Origin: Clostridia bacterium
Lineage (GTDB): Bacteria; Bacillota; Clostridia; Oscillospirales; CAG-272
NCBI GenBank assembly: GCA_017501545.1
Contig: JAFVWS010000035.1
Span: 75,408-139,407, forward strand
Direction: 5' to 3'
DNA: 64,000 nucleotides
Each line of letters opens with the position of its first letter. Position 1 is the first letter of the stretch. Positions 15,970 through 30,688 of the stretch are shown piece by piece. Both the position numbers and the translations under genes were made by a program. The notes under the pieces were generated by a model, which did no database searches, had not been told where the DNA came from, and saw only the letters and a list, made by a program, of their open reading frames with translations.

Positions 15970-18111
15970 CTATTGTATGTAAGCCTCAGCGCCTGCTTCT
16001 CTTAATTCATTGAGAACGTAGTTTGCCTCCTCAAGAGTGTCAAGCTCTGCAATTACGCAAGGAGCTGCATCAATCATATCCTTTGCGGTTCTTAAATCAA
16101 CCTCAAACATTTCCTTTATTGAGTTCATAACCGCAAGCTGATTTAGTCCACCTGATTGTAAAACCACGCTATACTTGCCTTCCTCACTGTCACTATCCTC
16201 TACGCACGCTTCCTCCTCACCGTCAGAAACCGCCTCGTATGTGCCAGTGTTTTCGCCCTCGTTTTGCATAAAGTTGATTTTTTGATTAATTTGTGCAATT
16301 GCGCTTCTTGCTGTATCAATATTAGCCTGAACAGCCATAATATCGTTCTCAATTTCGTGTACAGCCTCGCTTTGCTTGCCAATATTGCCAGGTCTATATC
16401 TTACAAGTGTTTTGATTGCTTGAATATGCGAAACCAAGCCACCGGTAAGAAGCATATCCGCAGGAATTAATCCAGCACGCTTAATCATTGCAAGCAAAAC
16501 GATGCCAGAAATAGTACGCACAACAATCATTGTAACAACTGAGCCTACATGGCTTCCATCTCCGCCAGTGCTTACCAAGTTTATAAATCCACTAAGAAGG
16601 GTGAAAATATATGCAATGGTAATAATCAGGTGCACTCCTGCAACCACGTTTAGCTTAATTGCATTTTTCTTGTTAAACTGACCGTGTCGCGCCCTTTCAG
16701 CAGCCTCTTCAAGGTCTTTCTTTTGTTTCAAGAACTCGCCTATACGGTTAGATGCGTTTTGTCTTGCGTTATATAGCGCTTGAAGCTCGCTTTGTCTTTG
16801 TGCCTCAAGCTCTGCATTTTCTCTAATTTGACGTTCTCTTTCTCTGCGCTCAGCCTCAAGCTTTTCAAGAGTTTCCTTAATCTGCGTATTATAACCGATG
16901 ATTCTTGTTGCCGTCTCGTCGTCTAAGAAACGAATTGCATTTTTGTAGGCTGCATAGTTTTCAAAAACTGTTGTGCAGTAAACGAGGTCAGATTCCTTTG
17001 TGCATTTTAGCTGAGCAAGAAGCTTGCCAAGATAAGCGCGTCCGTTTTCAGGGTCATTATCAAGCACCTTTTCAGCATATTCATCAGCGCTTGACCAATC
17101 CTCTGACTCAAGGAAGAGATATACACGCTTTAGAAGCGCCTCAGTATTTGCAGCCGGTGCTTGAATAGCTGTTGGCGCAGCCTGTGCTTGTATAGGTGCC
17201 TGCACCCTTTGCTCATTCTTTTTGCCTATGATTTTCTTAATACCTCTAATGAGGTCAGGCATAAAGCCAAGCTTGCTCATATCCTGTGCCTGTAGGTGGG
17301 AAAATTCTTGTGGCAAATCGTAAGGGTCCATATCCTTATATGCAGGAATTAGCACCTTTCTCGCACCATTTTTAATAAGTGAAAGATATCTTGACCACTC
17401 ATTCTTCACCCAAACTGCATTAAAGAATTCAGGCTTTGTTCCAAGAACAACCATTACCTTTGCACTATTAAGTGCAGCGAAGATATATGGCTCATAAGCA
17501 ACACCAAGCTTATCCTCAAGAGTAATACGGGCAAAGAACACCTTAAAGCCCTCTCTCTTTAGCTCGTGATAAAGCTCTGTTGCATAAACCGAATCGTGGG
17601 TTCTTCTTCCGTTTTCGTCTGTTTCCTTATAGCAAATAAATACATCAAATGGCTCTTCCTTTTGAGAAATATCAAGGATTCCCTTTTGAATTTCATTTAT
17701 TGCCCTTGCCTCCTCCTCATAAATAAGCTTTTGAGAAATGTCGGCATATTTTATAGCTGACTTATAGTTGTCATCGTCGAAAATTGACGTATATTGAGCA
17801 CGGTTAACGGTAGGAATTCTCTTCTTTGTTAGAGGGTCCTCTACGTATTCAATGCCATATTTACAAAGGACGATTGACCAATAGCTTTCCGCATCCTCGA
17901 TGTTTTCATTAAGAATCTCCTCATAGATTCCCATTGCCTTATCAAATTCATTGTTTCGGCGAAAATGATTTGCGCGGTCGTAAAGCCTTTCAATCATATC
18001 ATCATTAAGCCTTGGAAGCGTTTGCTGACTGCCACAATAATCGCAGGTGATTGTTGTGCTATTTTCAACATTTAATGCGCCACCACACATTTTACACTTA
18101 AAAACTGCCAT
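15970..18111 (-). CDS. Zn-ribbon / TIR / TPR-like / coiled-coil / 2-TM / L7-L12-C-terminal-domain-like protein (713 aa)
   Basis: From N- to C-terminus I see: a Zn ribbon (CKMCGG...CDYCG); a TIR-like block (FDVFICYKETDENG...VFFARITLE...AKVMVVLGT...AVWVKNEWSRY); TPR-like helices; a charged coiled coil (EAERRERERQIRENAELEAQRQ); two hydrophobic helices (VVAGVHLIITIAYIFTLLSGFINLV and VGSVVTMIVVRTISGIVLLAMI); and a C-terminus (YSVVLQSGGLNQLAVMNSIKEMFEVDLRTAKDMIDAAPCVIAELDTLEEANYVLNELREAGAEAYIQ) that resembles the ribosomal L7/L12 CTD. Confidence 0.8.
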   Translation of the reverse strand: MAVFKCKMCGGALNVENSTTITCDYCGSQQTLPRLNDDMIERLYDRANHFRRNNEFDKAMGIYEEILNENIEDAESYWSIVLCKYGIEYVEDPLTKKRIPTVNRAQYTSIFDDDNYKSAIKYADISQKLIYEEEARAINEIQKGILDISQKEEPFDVFICYKETDENGRRTHDSVYATELYHELKREGFKVFFARITLEDKLGVAYEPYIFAALNSAKVMVVLGTKPEFFNAVWVKNEWSRYLSLIKNGARKVLIPAYKDMDPYDLPQEFSHLQAQDMSKLGFMPDLIRGIKKIIGKKNEQRVQAPIQAQAAPTAIQAPAANTEALLKRVYLFLESEDWSSADEYAEKVLDNDPENGRAYLGKLLAQLKCTKESDLVYCTTVFENYAAYKNAIRFLDDETATRIIGYNTQIKETLEKLEAERRERERQIRENAELEAQRQSELQALYNARQNASNRIGEFLKQKKDLEEAAERARHGQFNKKNAIKLNVVAGVHLIITIAYIFTLLSGFINLVSTGGDGSHVGSVVTMIVVRTISGIVLLAMIKRAGLIPADMLLTGGLVSHIQAIKTLVRYRPGNIGKQSEAVHEIENDIMAVQANIDTARSAIAQINQKINFMQNEGENTGTYEAVSDGEEEACVEDSDSEEGKYSVVLQSGGLNQLAVMNSIKEMFEVDLRTAKDMIDAAPCVIAELDTLEEANYVLNELREAGAEAYIQ

Positions 18112-18132
18112 TTCTAATGTCCGTTGCTCCTA

Positions 18133-18858
18133 TTACTTTAATATTTTGCATTTAGCATTTCTTTCGCTAATAAGAGCAGATAGCTCCTTGGAAAACACAG
18201 CTGCGTTTTCTGCGTTTTTCTCATCAACAGCTACTGAAAATTCAGCAAATTTTTCTGTGATTCTACCCTCGACTGATTCGAGTGCTGGGTCTGACATAGG
18301 GTCGCTGTATCTAATTTCCTCATATACATTTCTTGCCAAAAGAGAAAGCTCCTCGCCGTCCGCCCTTGCCTTTAGCGCCTCTGCCTCGCTGATAAGCCAT
18401 CTCATATAAGTTGTCTTTGCTTCAACCCTTGCTTCTACAGCCGCAGCGTGCTCACCGCTTACCTTTGCGCCAAGTATAGAAATAACACCTACAACTAAGG
18501 TAATAGCACAAGCGATTATTCCAATCCAAGAAGCAACATAGCCATATACAGCTATGCAAATACCACCAATAACCAAGGTGACAATTAGAGTTGTTATGCT
18601 TGTTGAAATCATTGGAAGATTTAAAAATCTCTTATCCTTGCTCTTTTCACTAAGTGCAATAAATGCAATGGCAAGCTGACCAATAAAGGAAATTGTAATT
18701 ACAATATAAGCCGCCCAGAAAATACCCGTGCCAAGCTTATCAACCTCAACACCATTTATTTCTCTATATCTTGGTGTTACAAACGCAATTAGATTGAAAA
18801 GGCCAAGGGACAACGCCCAGCCAATAATATAATAAATAAAGCTTTTAGCGAATTTCAT
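18133..18858 (-). CDS. 4-TM membrane protein with a helical cytoplasmic tail (241 aa)
   Basis: Four clear hydrophobic helices are followed by an Ala/Glu-rich helical C-terminal domain of about 100 aa. A good RBS (ggagg) is present. No family recognised. Confidence 0.65.
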   Translation of the reverse strand: MKFAKSFIYYIIGWALSLGLFNLIAFVTPRYREINGVEVDKLGTGIFWAAYIVITISFIGQLAIAFIALSEKSKDKRFLNLPMISTSITTLIVTLVIGGICIAVYGYVASWIGIIACAITLVVGVISILGAKVSGEHAAAVEARVEAKTTYMRWLISEAEALKARADGEELSLLARNVYEEIRYSDPMSDPALESVEGRITEKFAEFSVAVDEKNAENAAVFSKELSALISERNAKCKILK

Positions 18859-18873
18859 TTTTCATCCTCCTTA

Positions 18874-21561
18874 TTAAAGCTTTTCGCCACATTCTGGGCA
18901 GAATTTTGGATTGCCGTTAATCTCTGTGTCACACTTCGCACATTTGCGAGCAAGGGCTGCCCCACATTCGCCACAGAATTTACCCTTAGCTGTCTTTTGA
19001 CCGCATGATGGGCAAATAACCTCATTGTCGTTAAGGCTTTCTATTTTTGCGCCACATTCTAAGCAGAACTTAGAGGTTGAAGGCACGCTCGCATTACATT
19101 TTGGGCAGGTTGTAGCAGGTGCAACTGGCTCTTGTGGCTGGAAGCCCTTAAACATATCGCCCATTTGTGGAGCAATGTGTCCTGCTGCTGCAAGACCAAC
19201 ACCAAGTCCAACCATATCACCAGCAACTGAGCCACCACCTGTGATTGTCATATTGCCAATGCCCTTTGCATATTCCTTTTGAACCTCAGCCTGAATAATG
19301 TCTCTTTGGTTGTAGCCTTGTGCCTGCATAATTTCAGCCTGTGCGAAGCCGTCCATCTTTTTAGCCTGAGCCTCTGCCTGAGCCTTAATAAGGTCTCTTT
19401 CAGCCTGACGCTTTGCAATTTCTGTTGCTGTTAGCTCGCCCTCAAGGATTGTTTCTCTGTCTGCCTTTATTTTAGCTGTTCTTACAGCTGCCTCTGCCTC
19501 TGCAACCTTTGTTTGCAGAGAGATTGTATGAAGCTCACGAAGCTTTTTGAAGTTAGGGTCGTTTTCCGGAAGATTGATTGTTGTTATGTAGAACTGTGGA
19601 ATTGTAAGACCATATTCCTCAAGTGCCGGTGTAATGTTTCTTCTTAATACCTCGGAAAGAAGCTCAAGGTTTTCGTCAACATCCAAAAGATCAATATTTT
19701 GAGATTTTATCGTTGCTGCAAGATGTGTCTTTACAGCAGTTGTGATAAGTGGACGGAAGCAATTTTGAAGCGACTTTGTAAAGAACGCACCACGCTCCTC
19801 CCATGCAATACCATTCGTTGTACCAACAAGCTTAATAAGAAGCTTACGAGCGTTGGAAACTGCTAAATTAAGCTCACCAGATGCGCCAATTTCAAGAGGA
19901 ATACCAAGCGTTGGCTCAACAAAGCGCACAAGCTCAGGTGTGCCCCATTTAATGCCCATTTGAACAGTCTTATTAATAAAGTAAACCTCACAGTGGAAGG
20001 GTGATTCTCCACCTGCCACTCTCTTCATTGATTTTCCAACAAGTGGAAGGTTTTGTGTTTCAAGAGTATGACGACCTGGGCCAAACAAATCAAGCGCTTG
20101 ACCATTAAGGAAGAATACTGCCTCCTGTGATTCGTGAACTATAAGCTGTGTATAATTGTTGAAATCCTCGCGTGGGTGCTTCCAAATAAAGGTATTGTTA
20201 TCACCCTCATATTTAATTACGTCTACCACATTGTTAGCCATAATAATTGTCCTTTCCCCTGCTACTGCCGGTTTTGTTGAATTTACAAAAGAATCATCGT
20301 CCCTTGACGAATTAGCGCCTCCAAAATTTGGCGGTGGCACAACCCAATTTGCTGATGCAATCTTTGAATCTGCCACTGGCGCAGAAGGCTTTGGTGCTTC
20401 AATAGGTGGAGCCTTAGGCGCGCCTGATGAAAAGTCATTTTTTGGTGAAGGTGCTTGTGTCTTAGCTGGTGCTGAAATTGTATCAAATAAATGACGGTCC
20501 TCCTCTGAAGGAAGCGTTTCATTCATAGATGAAGGCGCACCAACTGCTATCGTTTCCTCTGCAGCCTTGCCTTGTGACACCGCTTTGCCTTCAGTCCTGC
20601 TTGAATTGATTGGGGTGCCCTCCATTACAACATCATCAAGGGCTTTTTCTCCCATTTCCTTTTCACATTCTAAGAGCGCATCATAAAATTCCTTTGCAGA
20701 ATCGTATCTTTGTGCGCGTGGACTGATTGCCTTGACTATTACCTCTCCAAGCTTATTTTTCGCCATCACAGGCGCGCTTGGCATCTTGCCTGTCATTCTC
20801 GTTTCAAATGCAATATCCTCGTCCTCTGTTGAATATGGCTCTGGAAATTCTGGCAGGAATGGATTTCTTGATTTATTTAATAGCTTATATAAAACTATTC
20901 CAAGTGAATATAAATCCACTGTATTATCGTACTTTTCTTTTCCAAGGTATACCTCAGGTGCTATGAAGTTTGGTGTGCCCTTGACGGACTCAGCACGTGA
21001 CTTGTCCTTTAGCATTTTGGATACACCAAAGTCCCCAAGCTTATATTCACCCTTGGAGGAAACAAATATATTGTCGTCCTTAATATCTCTGTGAATGATG
21101 CTCTTTTCGTGACAGGAAATTAAGGCTGTCAATATATCCTTACCTAATTTTATTACGTCCCTTACAAGTATAGGCTTGCTTTCTATATAGTCTGTAAATG
21201 GTGTTAAAAACTCCATCATTATGTAAATGTCGTATGTTTTTGGAGATGGCGTCTCGATAATATCATTTTCATAATATCTAACTATGTTTTTAGTGCCACT
21301 CTCTGATAACGTGCTTAAAATTTGTATTTCACTAACTATATCATTAAGCACGCTTGCAAAATAATCGTCTGCCTTCGCATAGTCGCCGCCCATTGAGTTA
21401 AGCACGCTTGCATACTGCTTTTTTGTAGGCAATGTAATATGCTTTAGTGCCCTTACGTATGTTCCTGCGGCGTTTGTTTTTGATACCTTATAAACCGTTC
21501 CGAATCCGCCGGAGCCGATTTTTTCATCAACATGATAGCCTAATATTTCTTTACCGATCAT
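18874..21561 (-). CDS. Hanks-type Ser/Thr kinase fused to an SPFH/Band-7 (YdjI-like) domain and three C-terminal zinc ribbons
   Basis: Kinase motifs are intact (GSGGFGTVYKV, RALK, HRDIKDDN, DFG, APE). A P/A-rich linker follows, then an SPFH-like region (VIKYEGDNNTFIWKHPREDF...FHCEVYFINKT...), a coiled coil, and three CxxC...CxxC ribbons. ATG 21561 is preceded by ggag. The ORF-track start at 21564 is a TTG one codon upstream. Confidence 0.85.
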   Translation of the reverse strand: MIGKEILGYHVDEKIGSGGFGTVYKVSKTNAAGTYVRALKHITLPTKKQYASVLNSMGGDYAKADDYFASVLNDIVSEIQILSTLSESGTKNIVRYYENDIIETPSPKTYDIYIMMEFLTPFTDYIESKPILVRDVIKLGKDILTALISCHEKSIIHRDIKDDNIFVSSKGEYKLGDFGVSKMLKDKSRAESVKGTPNFIAPEVYLGKEKYDNTVDLYSLGIVLYKLLNKSRNPFLPEFPEPYSTEDEDIAFETRMTGKMPSAPVMAKNKLGEVIVKAISPRAQRYDSAKEFYDALLECEKEMGEKALDDVVMEGTPINSSRTEGKAVSQGKAAEETIAVGAPSSMNETLPSEEDRHLFDTISAPAKTQAPSPKNDFSSGAPKAPPIEAPKPSAPVADSKIASANWVVPPPNFGGANSSRDDDSFVNSTKPAVAGERTIIMANNVVDVIKYEGDNNTFIWKHPREDFNNYTQLIVHESQEAVFFLNGQALDLFGPGRHTLETQNLPLVGKSMKRVAGGESPFHCEVYFINKTVQMGIKWGTPELVRFVEPTLGIPLEIGASGELNLAVSNARKLLIKLVGTTNGIAWEERGAFFTKSLQNCFRPLITTAVKTHLAATIKSQNIDLLDVDENLELLSEVLRRNITPALEEYGLTIPQFYITTINLPENDPNFKKLRELHTISLQTKVAEAEAAVRTAKIKADRETILEGELTATEIAKRQAERDLIKAQAEAQAKKMDGFAQAEIMQAQGYNQRDIIQAEVQKEYAKGIGNMTITGGGSVAGDMVGLGVGLAAAGHIAPQMGDMFKGFQPQEPVAPATTCPKCNASVPSTSKFCLECGAKIESLNDNEVICPSCGQKTAKGKFCGECGAALARKCAKCDTEINGNPKFCPECGEKL

Positions 21562-21574
21562 CAACTTGCTCCTT

Positions 21575-22393
21575 TCAGAATTCTATCAATATAAGCGTAA
21601 TGTTATCACCATAGCCGGCATTGCGCCCAAGTGCACGCTCTATAAGAATTTTTCCAATTTGTTTAATGTCTTGATTTGTTTTAAATATCTCTGTCATTTC
21701 CTCATCGCTTAATACATCCGTCAAGCCGTCGGTGCATAACAGTAATTTTGTTGTATAGGCGCTTTTTTCAATTTTAAATGCGTCCGCAACCAATTCCCCA
21801 TTATATCCAATATATCTATATAGGTTTTTTCTTCTTGGGAATTTTTCGCACTCCTCCTTGGACAGAAGCCCTAAGCCTAAGAGCCTTTGTCCCTCTGTAT
21901 GGTCAACGGATAGCTGCTCCAGCTCCTCTCCTCTATAAGAATAAAGCCTGCTATCACCTACGTTAAAGCCATAAAGCTCACCGTTTTTGCGGACGAAGCC
22001 ACAAAGCGTTGCGCCCATTCCGTGAAGCTCCTCGCGCTCTCTTGCGCTTTCTACAACATAACGATTTAGCTTTGATATTTCGCCCTTCAAGGCTTCCTTA
22101 GTAATAGATGCAGGGTCAAAAATTCTTCTGCTATTTTCAGCCAAGTAGCCAACGCTCATCGCGCTTGCCACCTCGCCCGAGGCATGCCCCCCCATTCCAT
22201 CGGAGACGGCAATTATAAGATTATCCTCAAGATTACATTCGTATGCCAATTCATACGTCTGCCTGCTTTGAGAAATATAAAGCACCTCTTCCCTTGAAAG
22301 AATTCGTCCGTTGGCAATTAGCGCATTATCTTCTTGATTTTCGCGACTGTTTCCAACGCTTGAGGCAAAATATACAGAAGTTTTATCGGTCAT
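21575..22393 (-). CDS. PP2C-family Ser/Thr phosphatase (272 aa)
   Basis: Typical PPM motifs are present (EDNAL, SDGMGGHASGEVAS, CTDGLTD, DNITLILIEF). Its ATG shares one nucleotide with the stop codon of the upstream radical-SAM gene. Confidence 0.85.
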   Translation of the reverse strand: MTDKTSVYFASSVGNSRENQEDNALIANGRILSREEVLYISQSRQTYELAYECNLEDNLIIAVSDGMGGHASGEVASAMSVGYLAENSRRIFDPASITKEALKGEISKLNRYVVESAREREELHGMGATLCGFVRKNGELYGFNVGDSRLYSYRGEELEQLSVDHTEGQRLLGLGLLSKEECEKFPRRKNLYRYIGYNGELVADAFKIEKSAYTTKLLLCTDGLTDVLSDEEMTEIFKTNQDIKQIGKILIERALGRNAGYGDNITLILIEF

Positions 22394-23232
22394 TACCTAC
22401 ACCCCATTTTCCATTCGTGTTCGTTTTCCTTCATTTCTTCAATAGTACGATATCGCCATTTTTGTAATTTGGAGCACGGAGATATTGTTCCGTCTACATT
22501 TATAAATATCGCGCTTTCGCCAATGTCTAAACACCTAAATTCACTATTTGTAGTATACTCCCAATATTCTTTAAAGCATTTTTCTATTCGATACAAACTT
22601 GGATTTTTCGCTATTATATTTTGAATGCGTTGAATTGTATGAGTTGAAATGGTTGGACTGTATATTCCACTAAAAGATTTCACGGGGCGAAGTATGTCTA
22701 TTTTTTTCACGCCAATATTTACAAGATATTGAGACAATTTTTCAAAATTGTCAATATTTTGATCAGACAATACGACATTGGCACAGCATAATACACCCAC
22801 ATCGCAGGCATCTTTAATTGCCGCCATGCCAATATCATATGTATCACGAGTTAACGAGTTTATACTTTTGTCTATATCATTCATCGATATGCACAAAACA
22901 TCCAAACCGTTTTTTTTAAGTTCTGAGTATTTCTCTCTTGAATGATTGTATCCAGATGTTGCAAGAAAAACGAACCTTCTATTGCCCTTGCATTCTTTTA
23001 TCAACAAAGATAAATCCTCATGCATAAGCGGTTCTCCACCGGTTATTTGAACCACCTCAACATCTTTTGTCTGTGGTAAATTTAAAATTTCTTTTACTAC
23101 ATCCAATGATATATACCTGTCCCCTTTTTCGGTGTAGCAGTAGTTGCAATTATAGGGACAAGAATTGGTACATTGAATAACACAAGCCTGCAACCGCAAG
23201 ATTTTATTCCTTTTCCTTTTCTTGTTGGTCAA
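22393..23232 (-). CDS. Small radical-SAM enzyme with a short C-terminal Cys-containing (twitch/SPASM-like) tail
   Basis: It carries a CPYNCNYCY (CxxxCxxC) motif near the N-terminus, a GGEPLM motif, and a C-terminal FINVDGTISPCSKL. The start is uncertain. Position 23232 is a TTG that overlaps DUF4176 by 29 nt. In-frame TTGs at 23199 and 23193 lie just after the DUF4176 stop, with aaggaa upstream. No ATG precedes the Cys motif. Confidence 0.75.
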   Translation of the reverse strand: MTNKKRKRNKILRLQACVIQCTNSCPYNCNYCYTEKGDRYISLDVVKEILNLPQTKDVEVVQITGGEPLMHEDLSLLIKECKGNRRFVFLATSGYNHSREKYSELKKNGLDVLCISMNDIDKSINSLTRDTYDIGMAAIKDACDVGVLCCANVVLSDQNIDNFEKLSQYLVNIGVKKIDILRPVKSFSGIYSPTISTHTIQRIQNIIAKNPSLYRIEKCFKEYWEYTTNSEFRCLDIGESAIFINVDGTISPCSKLQKWRYRTIEEMKENEHEWKMGCR

Positions 23233-23485
23233 GACGAATTAATTTTTGCAAGAACTCCATTCCTTCTGCATCTTGAAGTCCAACAAAGAACAATTTGTCT
23301 ATTTGATCAAAGTTAAACAGGTATAGCTTTTCAGGATTTATTATTCCTTCAGGATACAAGCATCCGCTAAAATCCCACATTTTACCATTATCAATCTGTT
23401 TTTGTCTTAATCCAACCACCATAACTCGTTTGTTACTATTTTTCAAAAGCACAACGGAGCCGATTGGAAGATATTTGTTTTCCAT
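23204..23485 (-). CDS. DUF4176-family small protein (T7SSb accessory type, 93 aa)
   Basis: YLPIGSVVLLKNSNKRVMVVGLRQ...W(D)FSGCLYPEG matches my recollection of the DUF4176 signature. The gene lies directly downstream of a putative T7 substrate. Confidence 0.65.
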   Translation of the reverse strand: MENKYLPIGSVVLLKNSNKRVMVVGLRQKQIDNGKMWDFSGCLYPEGIINPEKLYLFNFDQIDKLFFVGLQDAEGMEFLQKLIRLDQQEKEKE

Positions 23486-23570
23486 GACTAATTTAAACCT
23501 TTCTTTCTCACATTATCCAAAAATCTTTTGTAAAGTGTATTTTATGTATTTTGATTGTCAAAAAAGATAC

Positions 23571-24728
23571 TTACCAAGAGGTTATGGCATTCCAAAAGCT
23601 CTTTGCTCCATCCGCAATCGTTTCGCCAACATCACTGAAAAAATCGCCTACTGCATTAACAGCGTCGTTAACAAAATCACCTACTGCTTCAACAGTGTCG
23701 CTAACAAAATCACCTACTGCTTCAACAGCGTCGCTAACGGTTTCTTTAAAATTTTCCCATCCTGCATCATTAAATCCAATTTCAATGCCAAGAGAAAATC
23801 CCAATATTGCTGCGACTCCGCCTTCCATTTTGAATTTTCCGTTTTCAAATCCAATCTCGCCCTCTGCTCCAATAGCTCCTGCATATCCACCGGCGCTGAT
23901 TTTTATATCCAATCCAAAAATGCTGAATGTCGCCTCTGCTTTTCCTTGAGCCGCGGCGACCATCGCCTTGCCTTCGGCTTTTGCTATAACTTTACCGTCA
24001 TCATCAATTTTCATGCCAATCTCGCCTTTTGCTTCAGCTACTCCAATGCCTCCTTCGCCACTTATGCCAAATCCCGCCATATCGTCACCGATATTTAAGG
24101 ATCCTTCAGCTCCTAGAACTTGGACTGAAGCTCCAACCTCGGCGCCAATAGATATAAATTCCATGGTTTCTTTTTCTTCCCATGTACCATCTTTCTTTTT
24201 TTCGCGCGTCTTTGTAGCTTTTCCAAAAGCAAACGAAGTGTCAAAGCTAGCCTCTGCTTTTCCTACGTAGGCATCTACTTCTGCGTTTCCCCAACCCCAA
24301 TCAGCACCGGCATAAGCATTGACTAAGTATGCACTTGCACTATTATCTGTAACCTTTGTTCCAAGTCCGTTAACATATGCGGAGCCCCATTTATCAGGTT
24401 TTTCAAGATCAGTCAAGCCTAAATCAATTTTAGCCGGCAAATATATATCAGGAGAATTCATTCCCAAAGGATCGTCTAAGCTTGCATAAACTATTGCAAC
24501 TTGAGATAGAAGCGCTCCCATTTGATTCAATGTAGTGGCCTCTTTTTTTAATTCCTCTGGAATCGAAAATATTTTTTCCTTTGCGCCAGAATGATATAAA
24601 ATATCCGTTTCTGCCGAGTTGATCGTTTCTACATAGGTATTATACACTCTTACCAATTCTTGTGTATATGAATTAATTGTGGAAGAATAGTCATTGATTT
24701 TGTTTACATTAACTTTAATATAAGGCAA
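23571..24728 (-). CDS. Putative T7SS substrate/toxin with an N-terminal helical (LXG/WXG-like) region and a Gly/Ala-rich repetitive C-terminal domain
   Basis: The gene follows the WXG genes. It has a TTG start with ggagg 7 nt upstream. The N-terminal 90 aa or so look helical. The rest is rich in GxxxG/A strings (GAEVGASVQVLGAEGSLNIGDDMAGFGISGEGGIGVAEAKGEIG...). The C-terminus carries a 3x 11-aa repeat, D(A/T)VEAVGDFV(S/N). There is no signal peptide. I could not point to a literal LxG motif. Confidence 0.45.
   Translation of the reverse strand: MPYIKVNVNKINDYSSTINSYTQELVRVYNTYVETINSAETDILYHSGAKEKIFSIPEELKKEATTLNQMGALLSQVAIVYASLDDPLGMNSPDIYLPAKIDLGLTDLEKPDKWGSAYVNGLGTKVTDNSASAYLVNAYAGADWGWGNAEVDAYVGKAEASFDTSFAFGKATKTREKKKDGTWEEKETMEFISIGAEVGASVQVLGAEGSLNIGDDMAGFGISGEGGIGVAEAKGEIGMKIDDDGKVIAKAEGKAMVAAAQGKAEATFSIFGLDIKISAGGYAGAIGAEGEIGFENGKFKMEGGVAAILGFSLGIEIGFNDAGWENFKETVSDAVEAVGDFVSDTVEAVGDFVNDAVNAVGDFFSDVGETIADGAKSFWNAITSW
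23640..23738. repeat. 3 x 33-bp in-frame tandem repeat inside 23571..24728
   Basis: The unit aaaatc(g/a)cctactgc(a/t)t(t/c)aacag(c/t)gtcg(t/c)taac occupies 23640-23672, 23673-23705 and 23706-23738. Confidence 0.9.
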
Positions 24729-24754
24729 ACTATTTCCTCCTATGTATTATCAAT

Positions 24755-25054
24755 TCAACTTTGTTGTGCTTGTGCGCCTTGTACGTTTGCATTTTCAGTA
24801 GCATCGTACGTGTCTGCTGCTTTCTCGAGAAATGTTGCATAGCTTATAATTGTCGTATAAATATCATCAAAATTATCAGCCAAGCCTTGGAACTTTGCAA
24901 CTGTTGTTTCTGCTGATTCGCCTTGCCAGGTTGATCTTAAGCTTTCGATTTCAGCAGTCATTTCGCCTGTGAATGTTTTAATAGAGTTAGCAACTGTCTT
25001 AAATGAGTTTGCCTTGTCTCTCATTGATGTAGAATTAACCTTAATTGTAGCCAT
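24755..25054 (-). CDS. WXG100-family protein (99 aa)
   Basis: The size fits, a central WQGES motif is present, and the helical composition and Q-rich C-terminus fit the family. The gene lies in the T7SS operon. Confidence 0.75.
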   Translation of the reverse strand: MATIKVNSTSMRDKANSFKTVANSIKTFTGEMTAEIESLRSTWQGESAETTVAKFQGLADNFDDIYTTIISYATFLEKAADTYDATENANVQGAQAQQS

Positions 25055-25068
25055 TTTAAAATTCCTCC

Positions 25069-25380
25069 TTAGATTCCTGTATGAAGATTGCTTGCGGCAC
25101 CTTTAATTGCCTCTTCTGTTTTAACGTAATTTTCCGCAGCTGCCCTAAGATACTTTACATATTGCAAAAGCACTGCCGACATTGTTTCAAAGTCGTTTCT
25201 GTAAGCCTCAAGCTTTGCATTAAACGTGTCACTTGCAATACCTTGCCATTGCGCAGATTTCAAGTTTTGAATTTCTGTGTAAAGCTTTGCCCACTCAGCG
25301 TTGTAGCGTGCGGTTTTCTCCTCGATTACGTTTGCAGAAGAAACCAATCTTTCTGTTGTTACTGCCCATTCGTTTGCCAT
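25069..25380 (-). CDS. WXG100-family protein (103 aa)
   Basis: A central WQGIAS motif (W-x-G) is present, with the expected helical hairpin size. It is adjacent to the other WXG gene. Confidence 0.7.
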   Translation of the reverse strand: MANEWAVTTERLVSSANVIEEKTARYNAEWAKLYTEIQNLKSAQWQGIASDTFNAKLEAYRNDFETMSAVLLQYVKYLRAAAENYVKTEEAIKGAASNLHTGI

Positions 25381-25438
25381 AGTTGTTATTTCCTTTCTTT
25401 TTACAGCTGTTGCTGATTTTTATTAATTATTTTCGCTA

Positions 25439-25681
25439 TCATCTAAGATTTTTAGCAGCACGTTCCATAGCGTTTGATACATCTGACATGCTTTGCTTCG
25501 TTTTTTGTATATCCGAAATAATCTTTGATAAACGGTTTTGAAACTCTTCGGATGCGGGACCTCTCCATTCATTTTTCATTTTATCTCGCAAAATCTCCAG
25601 CGAGAGAATTTTGCAGTCCAAATCCGACTCCAAATTATGGATTTGTTCGACTTGGCTAATAGCCTTTGAATAATCAGCCAT
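25439..25681 (-). CDS. Small WXG-like helical protein (80 aa)
   Basis: It has a WRGPASEEF motif and lies between the esaB-like gene and the WXG genes. It is shorter than typical EsxA. Confidence 0.5.
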   Translation of the reverse strand: MADYSKAISQVEQIHNLESDLDCKILSLEILRDKMKNEWRGPASEEFQNRLSKIISDIQKTKQSMSDVSNAMERAAKNLR

Positions 25682-25694
25682 GATGATACCCCCG

Positions 25695-25952
25695 TTATAT
25701 TAGCAATAGTTTTTCGCCGTGAGTGATGCCTAACTGCTTGAAATTACAGCCTGAATTAAGCACCTTGCCTGTTGACGCCTGCATAAGCGCGCCAGCTTGA
25801 AGCTTACTACGCTTAATTCCAGGATATTCCTCGCTGATTGCGTTTTGAATTAGCACAGTAGCATCTAACACACTCATTTCAAACGGAATAAGAAAATTAT
25901 GCTCGACGTTTAAGGAGAGAACCTTTATATTTACCGATAATTTATCTACCAT
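25695..25952 (-). CDS. YukD/EsaB-like ubiquitin-fold T7SS protein (85 aa)
   Basis: The size fits, and it lies 10 nt downstream of essC. The sequence pattern looks like a beta-grasp (LSVNIKVLSLNVEHNFLIP...GEKLLLI). Confidence 0.6.
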   Translation of the reverse strand: MVDKLSVNIKVLSLNVEHNFLIPFEMSVLDATVLIQNAISEEYPGIKRSKLQAGALMQASTGKVLNSGCNFKQLGITHGEKLLLI

Positions 25953-25962
25953 TTTATCCTCC

Positions 25963-28900
25963 TTATATCTTAACGTAAGCTATTTCGTCCTTCGAATAAA
26001 CGATAGCCTCACCATCATCTAATTTAATCTCGCGCGATTTTGTTGGCACACTGTATATGTCTGTCGTTATCGCCTGGGCAACGGAGTTATTAATCTCGCC
26101 ACCGATAATTACACCACATTGTGCGCGAACAAGCATTGAGTAAAGTCCGGCGCTTTGATATTCACCCCAGCGTTGCATATCATCAAGCGTAACTATATGA
26201 AGCCTTGGGCTTCTTGATACTATCTTCTCAAATTTGTTAAGCGCCTCATCAGAAATTCTATCAAAGAAATCACAAAATCCGTCTATAACTATAATTATAT
26301 CCGTTAGGTCGCTTTCCTCCTTTGCCCACAAATCATCAACAAAAGCATCAATGTCGTCGACAAATTCAAGTTGAGAAAGCTCCTCGTCACGATTAGAGGA
26401 TATTATGTATGCTTTTTTACCCTGCCTTACGATACTTGCCTTGAGCTTTTTCGCAAGCCCGCTGCTTGCACGTGTGCCGATGAAGATTCTTTTAGCGCTC
26501 GAATAATTAAATCCAACCTCTTCGCCACTTGCCTTATCAACGCCAACAAGCATATCACCCTCGTCAGATGGCGCATATTTGTATCTTTTACATTCGATTT
26601 TTTGAGCTGTAGGAATCAATGATGAAATATCCTTAATGGGTGCGTTTTTCTCGGTGCTTGATTTTATTTTTCTTTTGCTTGAATAGCTGTTGCCCTTAGA
26701 GACCTTAGCCATTTCAGCATATATCTCATTTATTTTTGAAGCACGAAGTGATTCGTTTGAGGCATTAAACGGAACAGCAAACTGCACCTCCGTCGCCTTA
26801 CCGCCCTTAACCACTAAGCCTCTGCCCTTAGCCTGCTCCGGCATAATTGGAACAGACACGTTAAGAATATCTCTGTACGCGCCAGAATCATTCATATTAA
26901 GGACTATTCTTTCTGAAATATGCTCAGTTACCCTATAGTAAATTGCACCCTTGCTATTACCTGTAACAATGAAATAAATACCACAGGCGCGCGCAGCGGA
27001 CACTAACTGAACAAGCGTATCCTCTACCCTGTGCGTTTTTTCACGGAATGCTGCATAGTCGTCAAGTGCAAAAATTATCATTGGCATTTTTTCATCAGTA
27101 AGTCTTATATATGACTCGTAGTTTGCACAATGGCTCTTTGTAAATATCTCTCTTCTTTCTGCAATTATTCCGTTTAGAATATCAAGCATTTCGTTTAATC
27201 CTGCATCATCGCTATCGGAAACATACCTTGAGCAATGAGGCATTGAAGCGAGGCTTGCAAGTCCTCCACCACCAAAGTCAGCCACAAATAGATTTAGCAT
27301 CTCTGGCGAAAGCTTAAGCGCCAAGGAGAACAGAATTGTTTGAATAAGTGTACTTTTTCCAGTACCTGAAGCGCCATATATTGCCAAATGTCCGTTTTCC
27401 AAGAAATCAACACTATATTGCTCCTGCTTTTGCTTTTCCGGCAAATCAACCATACCACAAATAGCCTGCATTTGTGTATCTGTATCCCACTCGTCAATAT
27501 TAAGAGCAAGTGCGCTGTTAAGGCACCTTTCAAGGAGTAAGGATGTGGAAAGAGGTGGAAGCCATAGCTTTTTCGCCCTGAGCTTCTGCTGCTCACCAAT
27601 GCTTGCAAGAAGCGACACTGTCTCCTCAAGCTGTGTACGCTCACTCTTTTTGTCAGCAACGGATTTTTTAGAGGTTCTTATTCTTTCCGCGTGCCAGTTT
27701 ACCATGTCAACTGAAACGCTGTCCTCATCTATATATTCCTTTTGCTCTATATAGTCAGCACCACTATATCCAGATTGAATCTGCTCAAAGATTTCGTCGT
27801 AGCCAACCTGAACAAACGCACGACCTGGTTGCTTAATGAGTGCAGCCTCTGGCTTGCCAAGCATATCCATACTATCCTGCTTGTCAAGAACCTTTAGGCA
27901 AACCTTAAACTTTGAGTTGCTCCAAATTTGTGGGTCAACAACACCACTTGGTCTTTGCGTCGCCAAAATAAGATGTATTCCAAGGCTTCTACCAACCTGT
28001 GCTATGTCTATAAGCTTGGACATAAACTCGGGATGCTGGGATTTTAGCTGAGCAAACTCGTCGATTACAATAATCAAGTGAGGAAGTGGTTGATCCAGCT
28101 TTTTGTCCTTGAAATATTTATGGTATGAGTTGATATCAATCTTATCAACTCCTAATATCTCTGCAGATTTATTGAAAAGGCTTTGTCTGCTCTTCACCTC
28201 TGCCTCTAAGGAAATGAGCGCCCTGTGTAGCGTATTTCCAGAAAGGTTTGAAATGGTTGCCGCAAGGTGAGGTGAGCGCAAGAATGGTCTTGCCATATCG
28301 CCACCCTTAAAGTCAACCAGAACAAAGGCAACCTCATTAGGGCTATAGTTTATCATCATTGATAAAATATAAGCCTGTAAGAATTCACTCTTACCTGAGC
28401 CTGTTGTTCCCGCCACTAAGCCGTGACAGCCGTGATACTTTTCGTGAATATCAAGCGAGAATATCTCGCCACCTGCCTTAACGCCAATAGGTGCAGCAAG
28501 GCTCCTTTCCGATACGTTTGTGCCCCAATGGTTTGTAATCTCCAAGGCACCAACGTTTCCAACCCTGAACATATCAAGGAAGGTTACTCTGTCTGGAATT
28601 GCCTCTGTGGTTTTATCAATTTTCACAGGAATTTGATTTATTTCGCTGCAAAGCTGTTTCATTAATGAATCAGAAACAGAGTCGGATTTATATTTTATAA
28701 AGCGGTTGTTGTTTTCATTTTTAACATACATACCGCAAACCTCTGCGTCCTTTTGAATTATAGCAACGCATTCCTTTGGAATATTACTAAATCTCTTTCC
28801 AAAGAACACAGTAGAAATACCAGAGGTGTTGTCCTTGTCAATTAAACGCTTTCTAAACGGCAAATCCTCAATTAAATTATCATCCAGCACCAAAACAACA

Positions 28901-30501
28901 TATCTTGGTAGCATATCCTCATTGCCCTCTTGGCTTGTCTCGCGGTCTGAAACAACCTCATCAAGATGTGCAAGAAGCGCCCTTGCCTCTTGTGGAGTGG
29001 TTGCCACGTATCGACGCTTTCTATCATTGCTCCATGTATGTGGTAAATCGTTAGCCCACTTAAGTGAAGACAAGTCTGAGGAATTATAAATCAATGCGAT
29101 TTTAACCTCATCTGGTGAGTGAAGCGCAACTATATTTGAAACAATAACCTTGAAAACCTCCTTGGTGTCGCCAACAACGCCAATTACCCTTTTGTCAGCC
29201 AAGGAAATAGCAATTGGAACATCGGTTAATGTTTCGTATCTGTTTTTTAGGTCAAGCGCCTGCTCAACCATTGGGTCATCCTCAAGGGTGAATGCCTTTT
29301 CTGGTGCTTGGATGTTCAATGGCGTGTCAATTTCACCAACACCTAAGCGTACAAGCAAAAAGTCCTCGTCTGTTGGCACCCTTTCCCAAAGGCGCCTGTT
29401 TCTGTCAAATATAAATTTCGACGTGTCAGCAGGAGATGGCATTGCGCTTTCCTTCAAAACGCGTGCATTCCTTTCATGCTTTTCCTTTATTTCGCCTTCC
29501 TTTTCAGCCAAATAAAGCTCATATCTTTTTATTCTATACTCCTCGTTTAGCCTTTCCTGCTTTTTGTTATATCTTCTCAAAAGCACTGGCCAAAGAAGCG
29601 CACCTGCAAGCATGCTGACAGCCATTACACTGCTTGTTATAACTGATGCAATGCCATTGCCCTTAACAGCATTTGCTATCGTAATACCAACGCTGGCAAG
29701 CATAGCAAGTGACATTGTAATAGAAGGGCCTGCCGTCAACAAAAACGGTGGTTGCTTTGATTTTTGAGGTGGTGTTGGGGCATCAATTACTATTTTGTCC
29801 TTGTCAACGGACTTGATAATTCTTGGCGTCCTTACATAATCACTTTCCTCCTCGTCCTTTTCAGGAGATGCGATTTCATACTCTTGAAGCAAGCTAAGCG
29901 CATTTGTCCTAATGTTTGATGGCAAAACTAATGCTCCGTCAAAGTAAACCATTGTTGTTCCCATTAAGTAAATCTCATCGCCATTCTCAAGCTTTCTTGA
30001 TGACTCTCTTTTTCCATTAACATAAATTGGCGTCTTTGTAGACAAGTCCTCAAGCACATAAGCGTCATTTTCCTTGTGAATAGCGGCGCATTTACGAGAA
30101 ACATTTGCATTGATGTCTATTATTATATTCGACTCCTCTGAGCGTCCAATAAATACATTTTCTTCACCAAGCATATATATATTCGATGACATAGAAAGCG
30201 TGCTACAATCAACGAAAAGAGCTGAATACACAACTCCATCGTTATCAAAGGTTAAATAGTCACCGTGTGAGATTTGCAAGGAGCCCTCTGCCTCTTGTCC
30301 TGCACTATAAATTTTTACAGCTGAGGATTTGCTTTGCAAGGTGTAATATTCCGCCTGAATATGAATAGGCAAATATATTTTCTTGTTTCCAAAAACAAAG
30401 CTCTTATCAACATAACCATTGAACGAATTTTGAATAAGCTCATCAATTTTATATTGACACATTTTATTATTTACAAAAATCGTTACTATAAAATTGTTCA
30501 T
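25963..30501 (-). CDS. essC: EssC/YukB-type FtsK-SpoIIIE T7SS ATPase with N-terminal FHA-like modules (1512 aa)
   Basis: The N-terminus is FHA-like (IGRSEESNIIID...VSRKCAAI...STKTPIYVNG...GDEIYLMG). Two TM helices follow. Walker A motifs GTTGSGKSEF and GASGTGKSTL are present, with Walker B IVIDEFAQL and a degenerate third ATPase domain. Confidence 0.9.
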   Translation of the reverse strand: MNNFIVTIFVNNKMCQYKIDELIQNSFNGYVDKSFVFGNKKIYLPIHIQAEYYTLQSKSSAVKIYSAGQEAEGSLQISHGDYLTFDNDGVVYSALFVDCSTLSMSSNIYMLGEENVFIGRSEESNIIIDINANVSRKCAAIHKENDAYVLEDLSTKTPIYVNGKRESSRKLENGDEIYLMGTTMVYFDGALVLPSNIRTNALSLLQEYEIASPEKDEEESDYVRTPRIIKSVDKDKIVIDAPTPPQKSKQPPFLLTAGPSITMSLAMLASVGITIANAVKGNGIASVITSSVMAVSMLAGALLWPVLLRRYNKKQERLNEEYRIKRYELYLAEKEGEIKEKHERNARVLKESAMPSPADTSKFIFDRNRRLWERVPTDEDFLLVRLGVGEIDTPLNIQAPEKAFTLEDDPMVEQALDLKNRYETLTDVPIAISLADKRVIGVVGDTKEVFKVIVSNIVALHSPDEVKIALIYNSSDLSSLKWANDLPHTWSNDRKRRYVATTPQEARALLAHLDEVVSDRETSQEGNEDMLPRYVVLVLDDNLIEDLPFRKRLIDKDNTSGISTVFFGKRFSNIPKECVAIIQKDAEVCGMYVKNENNNRFIKYKSDSVSDSLMKQLCSEINQIPVKIDKTTEAIPDRVTFLDMFRVGNVGALEITNHWGTNVSERSLAAPIGVKAGGEIFSLDIHEKYHGCHGLVAGTTGSGKSEFLQAYILSMMINYSPNEVAFVLVDFKGGDMARPFLRSPHLAATISNLSGNTLHRALISLEAEVKSRQSLFNKSAEILGVDKIDINSYHKYFKDKKLDQPLPHLIIVIDEFAQLKSQHPEFMSKLIDIAQVGRSLGIHLILATQRPSGVVDPQIWSNSKFKVCLKVLDKQDSMDMLGKPEAALIKQPGRAFVQVGYDEIFEQIQSGYSGADYIEQKEYIDEDSVSVDMVNWHAERIRTSKKSVADKKSERTQLEETVSLLASIGEQQKLRAKKLWLPPLSTSLLLERCLNSALALNIDEWDTDTQMQAICGMVDLPEKQKQEQYSVDFLENGHLAIYGASGTGKSTLIQTILFSLALKLSPEMLNLFVADFGGGGLASLASMPHCSRYVSDSDDAGLNEMLDILNGIIAERREIFTKSHCANYESYIRLTDEKMPMIIFALDDYAAFREKTHRVEDTLVQLVSAARACGIYFIVTGNSKGAIYYRVTEHISERIVLNMNDSGAYRDILNVSVPIMPEQAKGRGLVVKGGKATEVQFAVPFNASNESLRASKINEIYAEMAKVSKGNSYSSKRKIKSSTEKNAPIKDISSLIPTAQKIECKRYKYAPSDEGDMLVGVDKASGEEVGFNYSSAKRIFIGTRASSGLAKKLKASIVRQGKKAYIISSNRDEELSQLEFVDDIDAFVDDLWAKEESDLTDIIIVIDGFCDFFDRISDEALNKFEKIVSRSPRLHIVTLDDMQRWGEYQSAGLYSMLVRAQCGVIIGGEINNSVAQAITTDIYSVPTKSREIKLDDGEAIVYSKDEIAYVKI

Positions 30502-30590
30502 ACTGTCTCCTTGCGCTTAGCTTTCTAATAATTAAGAAATTTCGCGGGTAAAACTAATAAACAGTAGCGCCCGCGAAAAATATATAATAA

Positions 30591-30619
30591 ATTATAACAT
30601 ATTATTCATAATTTGTCAA
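30591..30619 (-). promoter_or_regulatory. Consensus sigma-A-type promoter of the essC operon
   Basis: On the minus strand it reads TTGACA (30619-30614), a 17-nt spacer, then TATAAT (30596-30591). The roughly 85-nt leader contains an 8-bp stem ttcgcggg/cccgcgaa (30541-30578). Confidence 0.7.
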
Positions 30620-30656: not shown

Positions 30657-30688
30657 ATAAAAGCGCGTGAGTTTTCACGCGCTTTTTT
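30657..30688. terminator. Palindromic terminator downstream of 30690..30899
   Basis: The hairpin aaaagcgcgtga-gttt-tcacgcgctttttt separates the RHH-like gene from the essC promoter. Confidence 0.6.

Follow-up and report, generated by a model that had tools for sequence, protein, structure and literature searches.

Control of type VII secretion system (T7SS) variants by phosphorylation has so far been a hypothesis drawn from gene neighbourhoods. Garrett, Higginson and Palmer (2024, PMC11217815) proposed, for four T7SS subtypes (c, d, e and j), a switch consisting of a kinase, a PPM phosphatase and an ATPase that carries an FHA domain, analogous to that of the type VI secretion system (T6SS). 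The DNA described here, a stretch of 64,000 nucleotides from a Clostridia bacterium (contig JAFVWS010000035.1; called the window below, and the source of all coordinates), contains an array of T7SS genes in which a Hanks-type kinase is fused in frame to a protein with an SPFH domain and three zinc ribbons (SPFH-ZnR). The fusion gene is followed by genes for a protein with four transmembrane (TM) segments and for a TIR-TPR protein.

The published TsxD/TsxF/TsxC clusters resemble this array in having a kinase with a conserved active site beside a PPM phosphatase within a T7SS cluster, an FtsK-type ATPase with an FHA domain, WXG100 proteins and, at the place of EsaB/YukD, a small protein. However, the published kinases are anchored in the membrane and possess a C-terminal extracytoplasmic domain, whereas the window kinase has no TM helix and continues into SPFH-ZnR instead. 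The terms SPFH, stomatin, flotillin, band 7 and zinc do not occur in PMC11217815, and the species names of the related loci described below are not in its supplements. The features of TsxJ, a DUF6382 domain and a second FHA protein, were not found in the array; nor were the additional components that characterise the subtypes e, f and j, with TsxI (Ig-like), TsxH and TsxK not specifically searched for.

A kinase fold is also part of the T7SSb systems, where it forms the cytoplasmic domain of EssB/YukC. EssB contacts the N-terminal FHA region of EssC/YukB, and the YukC pseudokinase has been found to bind the FHA region of YukB (PMC9600267). EssB is catalytically dead, however, binds without phosphorylation, and has one TM helix and an extracellular domain, whereas the window kinase has all catalytic residues and is paired with a PP2C phosphatase. 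The canonical T7SSb features present in the array are an EssC ATPase and three WXG100 proteins; for EssB, EssA and EsaA there was no Pfam or NCBIfam match among the scanned array proteins.

The C-terminal half of the fusion is closest in its layout to YdjI/SamI. YdjI of B. subtilis needs YdjG/YdjH to reach the membrane (PMC8581546), and YdjI/SamI is recruited by membrane proteins (PMC8581546; bioRxiv 10.64898/2026.02.06.704340). Like YdjI/SamI, the fused half lacks a TM anchor of its own, ends in zinc fingers and has a conserved 4-TM protein as its neighbour. It differs from YdjI/SamI with YdjG/YdjH (SamG/SamH) in having a kinase at its N terminus and a TIR-TPR protein as a partner; no PspA was found among the scanned ORFs of the array. 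SPFH proteins have been connected with type VII secretion before: the flotillin FloA supports T7SS assembly in S. aureus, where the SPFH scaffold promotes interactions among T7SS membrane components (PMC5718613). FloA is a housekeeping protein, encoded elsewhere and equipped with its own membrane anchor, whereas the SPFH proteins considered here are encoded inside T7SS operons (a short type) or fused to a T7SS kinase (the window). Finally, in the threonine-phosphorylation pathway PpkA/PppA/Fha1 of the T6SS, too, genes for a Hanks kinase, a PP2C and an FHA reader accompany those of the secretion apparatus, but this is another secretion system and the components are not homologous, so that the likeness is an analogy only.

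The fusion gene lies in an ORF at 18874-21564 on the minus strand. The likeliest start is the ATG at 21561, which has AAGGAG in front of it and gives a product of 895 residues. The corresponding NCBI entry, MBR2944717.1, is annotated merely as an 'SPFH domain-containing protein'. The protein is made up of the following parts.

18874-21561, minus strand: whole fusion gene, kinase, linker and SPFH-ZnR, 895 residues
20602-21561, minus strand: Hanks kinase domain, residues 1 to about 320, intact by its catalytic motifs
20278-20601, minus strand: kinase-derived Pro/Ala linker, residues 321 to about 428
19561-20184, minus strand: Band_7_1 SPFH domain, residues 460-667
19321-19557, minus strand: long helix of the kind that builds SPFH cages, residues about 669-747
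19171-19227, minus strand: hydrophobic Gly-zipper patch, residues 779-797, hydropathy 1.42
18889-19107, minus strand: three CxxC-CxxC zinc ribbons, residues 819-891

An earlier note on this DNA, made from the sequence alone, had described an intact Hanks kinase followed by a linker, a YdjI-like SPFH domain, a helix, a Gly-rich patch and three zinc ribbons, and this description is borne out by Pfam hidden Markov models, by motifs and by AlphaFold and Foldseek. The Pkinase model PF00069 matches with 140 bits against a cut-off of 31.7 (E 1.1e-40). The motifs GSGGFG (position 16), RALK (37, containing Lys40), HRDIKDDN (157), DFG (177) and APE (201) and the αC glutamate (Glu78) are in place, and K40, E78, D159, K161, N164, D177 and A201-P202-E203 are unchanged across 27 members of the family. 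Judged by these motifs, the fusion kinase is a catalytically intact Ser/Thr kinase of the Hanks type. The linker behind it retains two motifs that are conserved in the family, ETxG (T337) and DRHLFDT (T361). The kinases of this family also carry an insert of about 35 residues between the β3 lysine and the αC glutamate (HITLPTKKQYASVLNSMGGDYAKADDYF...; fusion residues 41-77, window about 21331-21441), a large share of which is invariant throughout the family.

The Band_7_1 model PF13421 matches residues 460-667 with 129 bits against a cut-off of 24 (E 2.5e-37; Pfam). A fold search was needed for the SPFH half because a sequence search of the Protein Data Bank (PDB) gave nothing significant. The AlphaFold model of the C-terminal half is of moderate confidence (mean pLDDT, the predicted local distance difference test, 66) and contains an SPFH core with a pLDDT of 74-90 and a helix of 79 residues; its top Foldseek matches in the PDB are stomatin, prohibitin, HflK/C, erlin, flotillin and QmcA (E 5e-9 to 1e-5). 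The DZR and Zn_Ribbon models of Pfam match residues 817-892, in which six CxxC pairs, at 819, 833, 850, 863, 874 and 888, make up the three ribbons. The Gly-zipper patch, conserved in the two SPFH-ZnR subfamilies, may be a point of membrane association. No segment of the fusion reaches the usual TM threshold of 1.6 in a Kyte-Doolittle analysis with a 19-residue window, and since the maximum, on the Gly-rich patch, is only 1.42, the protein has no convincing TM helix. Pfam finds no PASTA domain, and the NCBIfam PASTA-kinase model NF033483 scores 103 bits against a cut-off of 450. A PASTA kinase (PrkC/PknB/Stk1) is thus ruled out, as the earlier note had said of PrkC, by the lack of a TM helix and of PASTA domains and by an equivalog score that falls far short.

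The fusion is a real in-frame joining of two genes and is limited to one lineage. Its 90% identity cluster has 20 members, among which are ten distinct full-length sequences of 895 or 896 residues from independent NCBI, ENA and Logan assemblies. The contigs that bear full-length fusions are 64-146 kb long and have both flanks conserved, and the gene order of the window is found again in two further loci (L003 and L088). Within the species, the ratio of non-synonymous to synonymous polymorphism (pN/pS) is 0.04-0.1 in the kinase and SPFH parts alike; between strains, the kinase domain has six synonymous and only one or two non-synonymous differences. The 3' end of the gene in L088 (12200-12691, fusion residues about 740-896) is a mosaic, with a pS of 0.22-0.33 compared to less than 0.06 elsewhere in the gene, which suggests gene conversion from another SPFH-ZnR allele.

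Among the best 120 matches from 5.8 billion proteins, only the fusion's own cluster covers the whole query. The remaining top matches correspond to one half or the other: kinases of about 620 residues, 68-79% identical to residues 1-400, and SPFH-ZnR proteins of about 500 residues, 47-63% identical to residues 445-895. A pairing of Pkinase with Band_7_1 was found in none of the ten long or multi-stretch matches that were scanned from the best 150 of 1.84 billion representatives. Those ten proved to be kinases in tandem or kinases to which MORN, LRR or DUF6273 domains are attached. Architectures of these kinds, with the additional domain at the C terminus or with kinase domains in tandem, are seen in P0123, P0166, P0177, P0250, P0251 and P0264, which belong to the same kinase family. 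The earlier note knew of no described kinase-SPFH fusion; no other was found in the protein searches, and the architecture is undescribed as far as the literature searches reach. Within the reach of these searches, three further things that are described below also appear to be new: the short SPFH-ZnR gene that heads many of the operons, the kinase::4TM forms and the SPFH/4-TM/TIR cassette.

The origin of the fusion can be read from a second contig, L172, which carries the same chromosomal site without the T7SS genes. This contig is 98.5% identical to window positions 34866-31146 (genes for YpsA, a flavin reductase, a GDSL protein and a ComM-like protein) and 95.4% identical to positions 30987-30577 (a 69-residue ORF and the promoter). 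After the promoter it runs straight into a standalone SPFH-ZnR gene of 463 residues, followed by a 4-TM gene of 250 residues, and this segment is 74% identical to window positions 20256-18127. The promoter sequence that precedes essC in the window recurs unchanged in L172, where it immediately precedes the standalone SPFH-ZnR gene. The alignment divides the window as follows.

20277-30576, minus strand: T7SS block of about 10.3 kb, from essC to kinase residue about 428, absent from L172 (boundaries approximate)
20242-20277, minus strand: former 5' untranslated region (5'UTR) of SPFH-ZnR, now translated as residues about 429-440
18874-20241, minus strand: complete former SPFH-ZnR ORF, Met441 to Leu895, and stop codon

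In the alignment, the ATG at 20241-20239, which encodes Met441 of the fusion, falls on the codon with which the standalone gene begins. The ribosome-binding site (RBS) of that gene, aggggaaagg, is retained at 20251-20260, and the similarity of the untranslated region to L172 reaches to about 20277. According to the alignment, the block of about 10.3 kb is therefore bordered by the promoter on one side and by the RBS of a resident SPFH-ZnR gene on the other. The fusion was made where the T7SS block, cut inside the kinase gene just before its membrane module, abuts this RBS. We hold this account of the anatomy and origin of the fusion with great confidence. The two arrangements appear to be haplotypes of one species, with and without the T7SS block, and provide a natural strain pair that is ready for comparison. 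The 74% identity of the SPFH/4-TM segments and the mosaic 3' end in L088 show that the locus recombines. In L062 and L040 (metagenome-assembled genome, MAG, SGB_680) a contig ends inside a kinase gene; the first 95 residues of the kinase are 96% identical to those of the window, compared to only 53% for the PP2C, which suggests a recombination breakpoint or an assembly break at the kinase gene.

The kinase half belongs to a family that is regularly found in T7SS clusters. A survey of one genome per species, in which the kinase had to be at least 48% identical, gave 38 loci in Oscillospiraceae, Lachnospiraceae, Paenibacillus, Sporosarcina and Cytobacillus. PP2C is directly upstream of the kinase in 33 of them, and EssC (28 loci), WXG100 proteins (29) and DUF4176 (30) are present in the same order; the loci that lack these T7SS genes are mostly on short contigs. 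These counts and the shared order define the PP2C/kinase pair as a conserved terminal module of this type of EssC-FHA cluster, in about 30 species. The ordinary relatives consist of the kinase, the linker with ETxG and DRHLFDT, two to four TM helices and a helical tail, so that the normal form of the kinase is anchored in the membrane. The linkers are too divergent to tell which type of kinase C terminus was ancestral.

SPFH-ZnR proteins are met again at the other end of these operons. A short SPFH-ZnR gene (about 375 residues, same architecture) lies immediately upstream of essC in 13 loci, and in the seven that show the whole gene it overlaps essC or ends within 10 nucleotides of it. The short proteins are about 30% identical to the SPFH half of the window. 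Neither such a gene nor a remnant of one was found when the DNA upstream of the window essC was inspected for it.

The C-terminal half of the fusion and the two genes downstream of it represent a second conserved unit.

18133-18858, minus strand: 241-residue protein with four TM segments and a helical tail with the invariant RYSDP.S
15970-18111, minus strand: 713-residue protein with a zinc ribbon, TIR and TPR domains, two TM segments and a ribosomal L7/L12 C-terminal domain

Genes for SPFH-ZnR proteins of the long type are followed by a gene for a 4-TM protein of about 230 residues and then by one or two genes for zinc-ribbon/TIR/TPR proteins. The 4-TM proteins are 35-43% identical to the 241-residue protein of the window and have RYSDP.S invariant; the TIR proteins are up to 61-71% identical to the one in the window. 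The cassette occurs in four unrelated annotated contexts. The cassette was followed through L002, L084-L087, L092-L171 and the window (15970-20241). A survey of metagenomes gave 80 loci, 54 of which contain the 4-TM gene and 62 the TIR-TPR gene. Where at least 3.5 kb of downstream DNA is available (45 loci), these numbers are 38 and 41. The 4-TM gene starts within 200 nucleotides downstream of SPFH-ZnR in 44 of the 80 loci. SPFH-ZnR, 4-TM and TIR-TPR genes thus form a widespread three-gene cassette, and no kinase, PP2C or EssC was found in any of the 80 metagenome loci.

The cassette is a candidate for a defence or membrane-stress system. PADLOC recognises no known defence system in it, and the partner genes of known TIR systems are absent. 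The TIR protein gives only weak matches to such systems, namely PDC-S66 (5.5e-5), ThsB (0.0028) and NCBIfam ThcB4 (2e-6, 27 bits against a cut-off of 220), so that Thoeris and the other TIR systems of PADLOC were rejected as its identity. No paper describing the cassette was found, and searches of the literature for SPFH together with anti-phage or with TIR returned nothing relevant. The TIR-TPR protein of the window carries the L7/L12 domain at residues 648-712 (Pfam 7e-10), after the two TM segments; its homologues in other loci have extra TPR or DUF6273 domains in place of L7/L12 (DUF6273 in L084 and L086), the latter domain being shared with some of the kinases mentioned above. The C-terminal domain of ribosomal L12 is the part of the ribosome that binds translational GTPases, and for this reason the L7/L12 domain looks like a swapped sensor or decoy domain.

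The fusion matters mainly because related genomes recombine the same parts differently, which suggests that the parts work together. Seven sister kinase clusters, whose kinase domains are 63-81% identical to that of the window, have the 4-TM RYSDP.S module as their C terminus. One such kinase::4TM form is inside a full T7SS operon (L089), and another stands in a locus with the order SPFH-ZnR, PP2C, kinase::4TM, TIR-TPR (L091). In L006 and L007 the gene for an ordinary T7SS kinase is followed by TIR-TPR genes, and in L007 by an SPFH gene as well. The recurrence of the same modules in several arrangements suggests that SPFH-ZnR, the TM/helical adaptor, the kinase, PP2C, and the T7SS or TIR protein are functionally coupled, for which a complex of kinase, adaptor and SPFH would be the simplest form. 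It suggests further that the membrane module of the kinase is interchangeable: a TM tail in the ordinary form, the 4-TM adaptor in the sister clusters and the SPFH scaffold in the window. What the locus and its relatives add to the published proposal, then, is a recurrent SPFH-ZnR component of such operons, an interchangeable membrane module of the kinase and a cassette that shares parts with the T7SS.

These arrangements are consistent with a reading that we consider probable, in which the fused kinase still serves the T7SS and is tethered by an SPFH scaffold on the 4-TM protein. The kinase and PP2C would determine whether a component of the T7SS, or the linker of the kinase itself, is phosphorylated, and the FHA domain of EssC would read this state through contacts that depend on phosphothreonine. 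An active kinase would thus take the place that the EssB/YukC pseudokinase has in its contact with FHA. The lost TM module of the kinase would be replaced by an oligomeric SPFH scaffold docked on the 241-residue 4-TM protein, in the manner of the recruitment of YdjI/SamI by YdjG/YdjH. The internal RBS and Met441 may additionally give a free SPFH-ZnR protein. That the kinase acts on the T7SS is an evenly balanced proposition; to the tethering of the kinase by SPFH and the 4-TM protein we would likewise give about an even chance. The earlier note had the SPFH domain itself place the kinase at the membrane. SPFH domains of this type have no anchor of their own, and the likely anchor is the 4-TM protein, whose gene begins 15 nucleotides downstream of the fusion.

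The part of EssC that would act as a reader is its single Pfam FHA domain.

25963-30501, minus strand: EssC-type ATPase, 1512 residues, with two hydrophobic segments and FtsK domains
29965-30153, minus strand: FHA domain of EssC, residues 117-179

This ATPase passes the NCBIfam equivalog TIGR03928 (973 bits against a cut-off of 778). The earlier note had put the kinase and its phosphatase next to an FHA-bearing EssC; the genes are in the same co-directional array, although they are not adjacent, essC being seven genes (3.6 kb) upstream. The FHA domain reads GR...SRKC...STKTP. An alignment with GarA and 35 relatives shows that Gly-Arg and Ser-Arg are kept while the conserved His is replaced by Cys and the Asn by Thr; the note had already seen Gly-Arg and the Ser retained and the His and Asn positions apparently substituted. 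Gly-Arg is present in all and Ser-Arg in almost all of the T7SS-linked relatives aligned. The closest solved relatives of the domain, GarA and OdhI, are phosphothreonine binders (E 4e-4). The EssC structures of S. aureus (1WV3) and G. thermodenitrificans (5FWH), which are cited as lacking the residues that bind phosphothreonine (PMC9600267), are absent from the table of PDB matches to this domain at E <= 1. Binding of phosphothreonine by the EssC FHA domain is plausible but not assured. The threonine-phosphorylation switch that the note proposed for this T7SS is in its general form the idea already published in PMC11217815. The counts over 38 loci show that the link of kinase and PP2C to the T7SS is no coincidence of the window, and the affinity of the FHA domain to GarA and OdhI agrees with a switch, but the lost His and the replaced Asn do not.

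Several observations weigh against this account of the fusion and its function. Most T7SS-linked relatives have SRKH in the FHA domain; the window and its closest relatives (L004, L006, L007 and L008) have SRKC, so that the His is lost throughout this clade. The canonical S-N-G is changed to K-T-G or similar in every aligned T7SS-linked locus with a kinase at least 48% identical, and reads K-T-P in the window. The kinase/PP2C pair of L091 has no T7SS gene within 10 kb. Homology of the usual kinase tail to the 4-TM protein is unproven: BLASTP of the 241-residue protein against the C termini of ordinary kinases found nothing, and hhalign, although it aligned the expected helical motif, did so with a probability of 30% (E 6e-4). 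Insertion of the block in one haplotype and its deletion from the other both fit the alignment with L172, and replacement of the whole segment by recombination is possible as well because the SPFH/4-TM segments of the haplotypes are only 74% identical. The fusion could be a neutral by-product of the junction. Furthermore, in one MAG the gene is broken in two within the SPFH domain (P0269 and P0267).

The fusion might be accidental and have no function as a fusion, SPFH-ZnR being made from the internal RBS and Met441 and the truncated kinase being impaired or tolerated. The junction falls exactly at the 5'UTR with RBS and ATG retained, the fusion is limited to one species-level cluster, of which the split copy just mentioned is a broken member, and a haplotype of the same species lacks both the T7SS block and the fusion. 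That each half is under purifying selection does not prove that the link is used, since this would be expected even if the covalent linkage were irrelevant. The excess of synonymous differences in the kinase domain and its full set of catalytic residues nevertheless speak against an accident, the reading frame is kept in all ten full-length variants, and chance adjacency alone is hard to invoke when kinases of this family are linked in other genomes to different parts of the cassette. We regard an accident as unlikely, if the least unlikely of the alternatives. An artefact, in which the gene would be an assembly chimera or two mis-joined neighbours, is effectively refuted: standalone relatives of both halves are far closer than fused ones, and the split copy is annotated as two adjacent genes, but the long contigs from independent assemblies, with the same architecture and conserved flanks, leave it next to no probability.

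The remaining alternative is that the kinase and PP2C mainly govern the SPFH/4-TM/TIR cassette, as part of a membrane-stress or anti-phage system, and that their adjacency to the T7SS is secondary; the targets of the kinase would then be the SPFH scaffold, the adaptor or the TIR protein. The arrangement in L091 and the TIR-TPR genes behind the kinases of L006 and L007 are what would be expected in this case. The TIR protein retains the glutamate motif W..NEW, as read by eye from the alignment, and the fusion kinase resembles PADLOC defence kinases, at the level of the generic kinase fold only (models mad6 and PD-T4-6). The cassette works without a kinase and PP2C, however, to judge from their absence from all 80 cassette loci, and conversely about 30 species have the pair in T7SS operons that lack a TIR gene (TIR is present in only 2 of the 38 loci). 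Nor did the Pfam and PADLOC scans find an FHA or other phospho-reader domain in the cassette proteins. Control of the cassette, and with it the phosphorylation of cassette proteins in place of T7SS components, is judged improbable.

A wider view, in which SPFH-ZnR, the TM/helical adaptor and the kinase/PP2C pair would form one envelope-stress signalling set that is plugged either into a T7SS, through the FHA domain of EssC, or into a TIR NADase effector, is speculative and rather doubtful. If it were correct, the window would have all parts of the set behind one promoter, and a single signal of damage to the membrane, such as by a phage or an incoming T7 toxin, could trigger both secretion as a counter-attack and the TIR response. 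The kinase::SPFH and kinase::4TM proteins would then be 'Rosetta stone' evidence of a physical complex, and gut Clostridia would connect a PspA/YdjI type of membrane surveillance with antagonism between bacteria and with TIR immunity.

The array as a whole lies behind one promoter-like site. All of its genes are on the minus strand and co-directional from this site, with gaps of 0-85 nucleotides and no convincing terminator within. The order is essC, the 85-residue ORF, three WXG100 genes, the gene for a 385-residue Gly-rich protein, DUF4176, radical SAM, PP2C, the fusion, the 241-residue 4-TM gene and the 713-residue TIR gene. The promoter is itself preceded by a bidirectional terminator-like hairpin with a 12-bp stem (30659-30686). 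The features that were not given above are as follows.

30591-30619, minus strand: perfect promoter-like site of the sigma-70 type upstream of essC, TTGACA, 17 nucleotides, TG, TATAAT
25695-25952, minus strand: 85-residue protein directly after essC, in the position taken elsewhere by the EsaB/YukD-like TsxB
25439-25681, minus strand: WXG100-like protein, 80 residues
25069-25380, minus strand: WXG100 protein, 103 residues
24755-25054, minus strand: WXG100 protein, 99 residues
23571-24728, minus strand: 385-residue Gly-rich protein, no family match
23204-23485, minus strand: DUF4176 protein, present in 30 of the 38 related loci
22393-23232, minus strand: radical SAM protein, start codon uncertain
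21575-22393, minus strand: PP2C/PPM phosphatase, 272 residues

The stop codon (TGA) of PP2C is exactly 13 nucleotides before the ATG of the kinase, which agrees with the spacing given in the earlier note, and the phosphatase keeps the PPM metal-binding motifs RENQED, DGMGGH, GDSR, TDGLTD and DNIT. In 28 loci an ORF occupies the position that the 85-residue protein has behind essC; for the protein of the window itself, none of the hidden Markov models gave a match. The 385-residue protein is probably a T7SS substrate or toxin candidate because its gene is sited between the WXG100 genes and DUF4176; the motif AVGDF(V/F)(S/N)D is repeated three times at its C terminus. The radical SAM gene has weak SPASM and viperin-like matches, and a radical SAM gene between DUF4176 and PP2C is otherwise seen in the closest T7SS relatives only (L004, L007, L008, L062 and L089).

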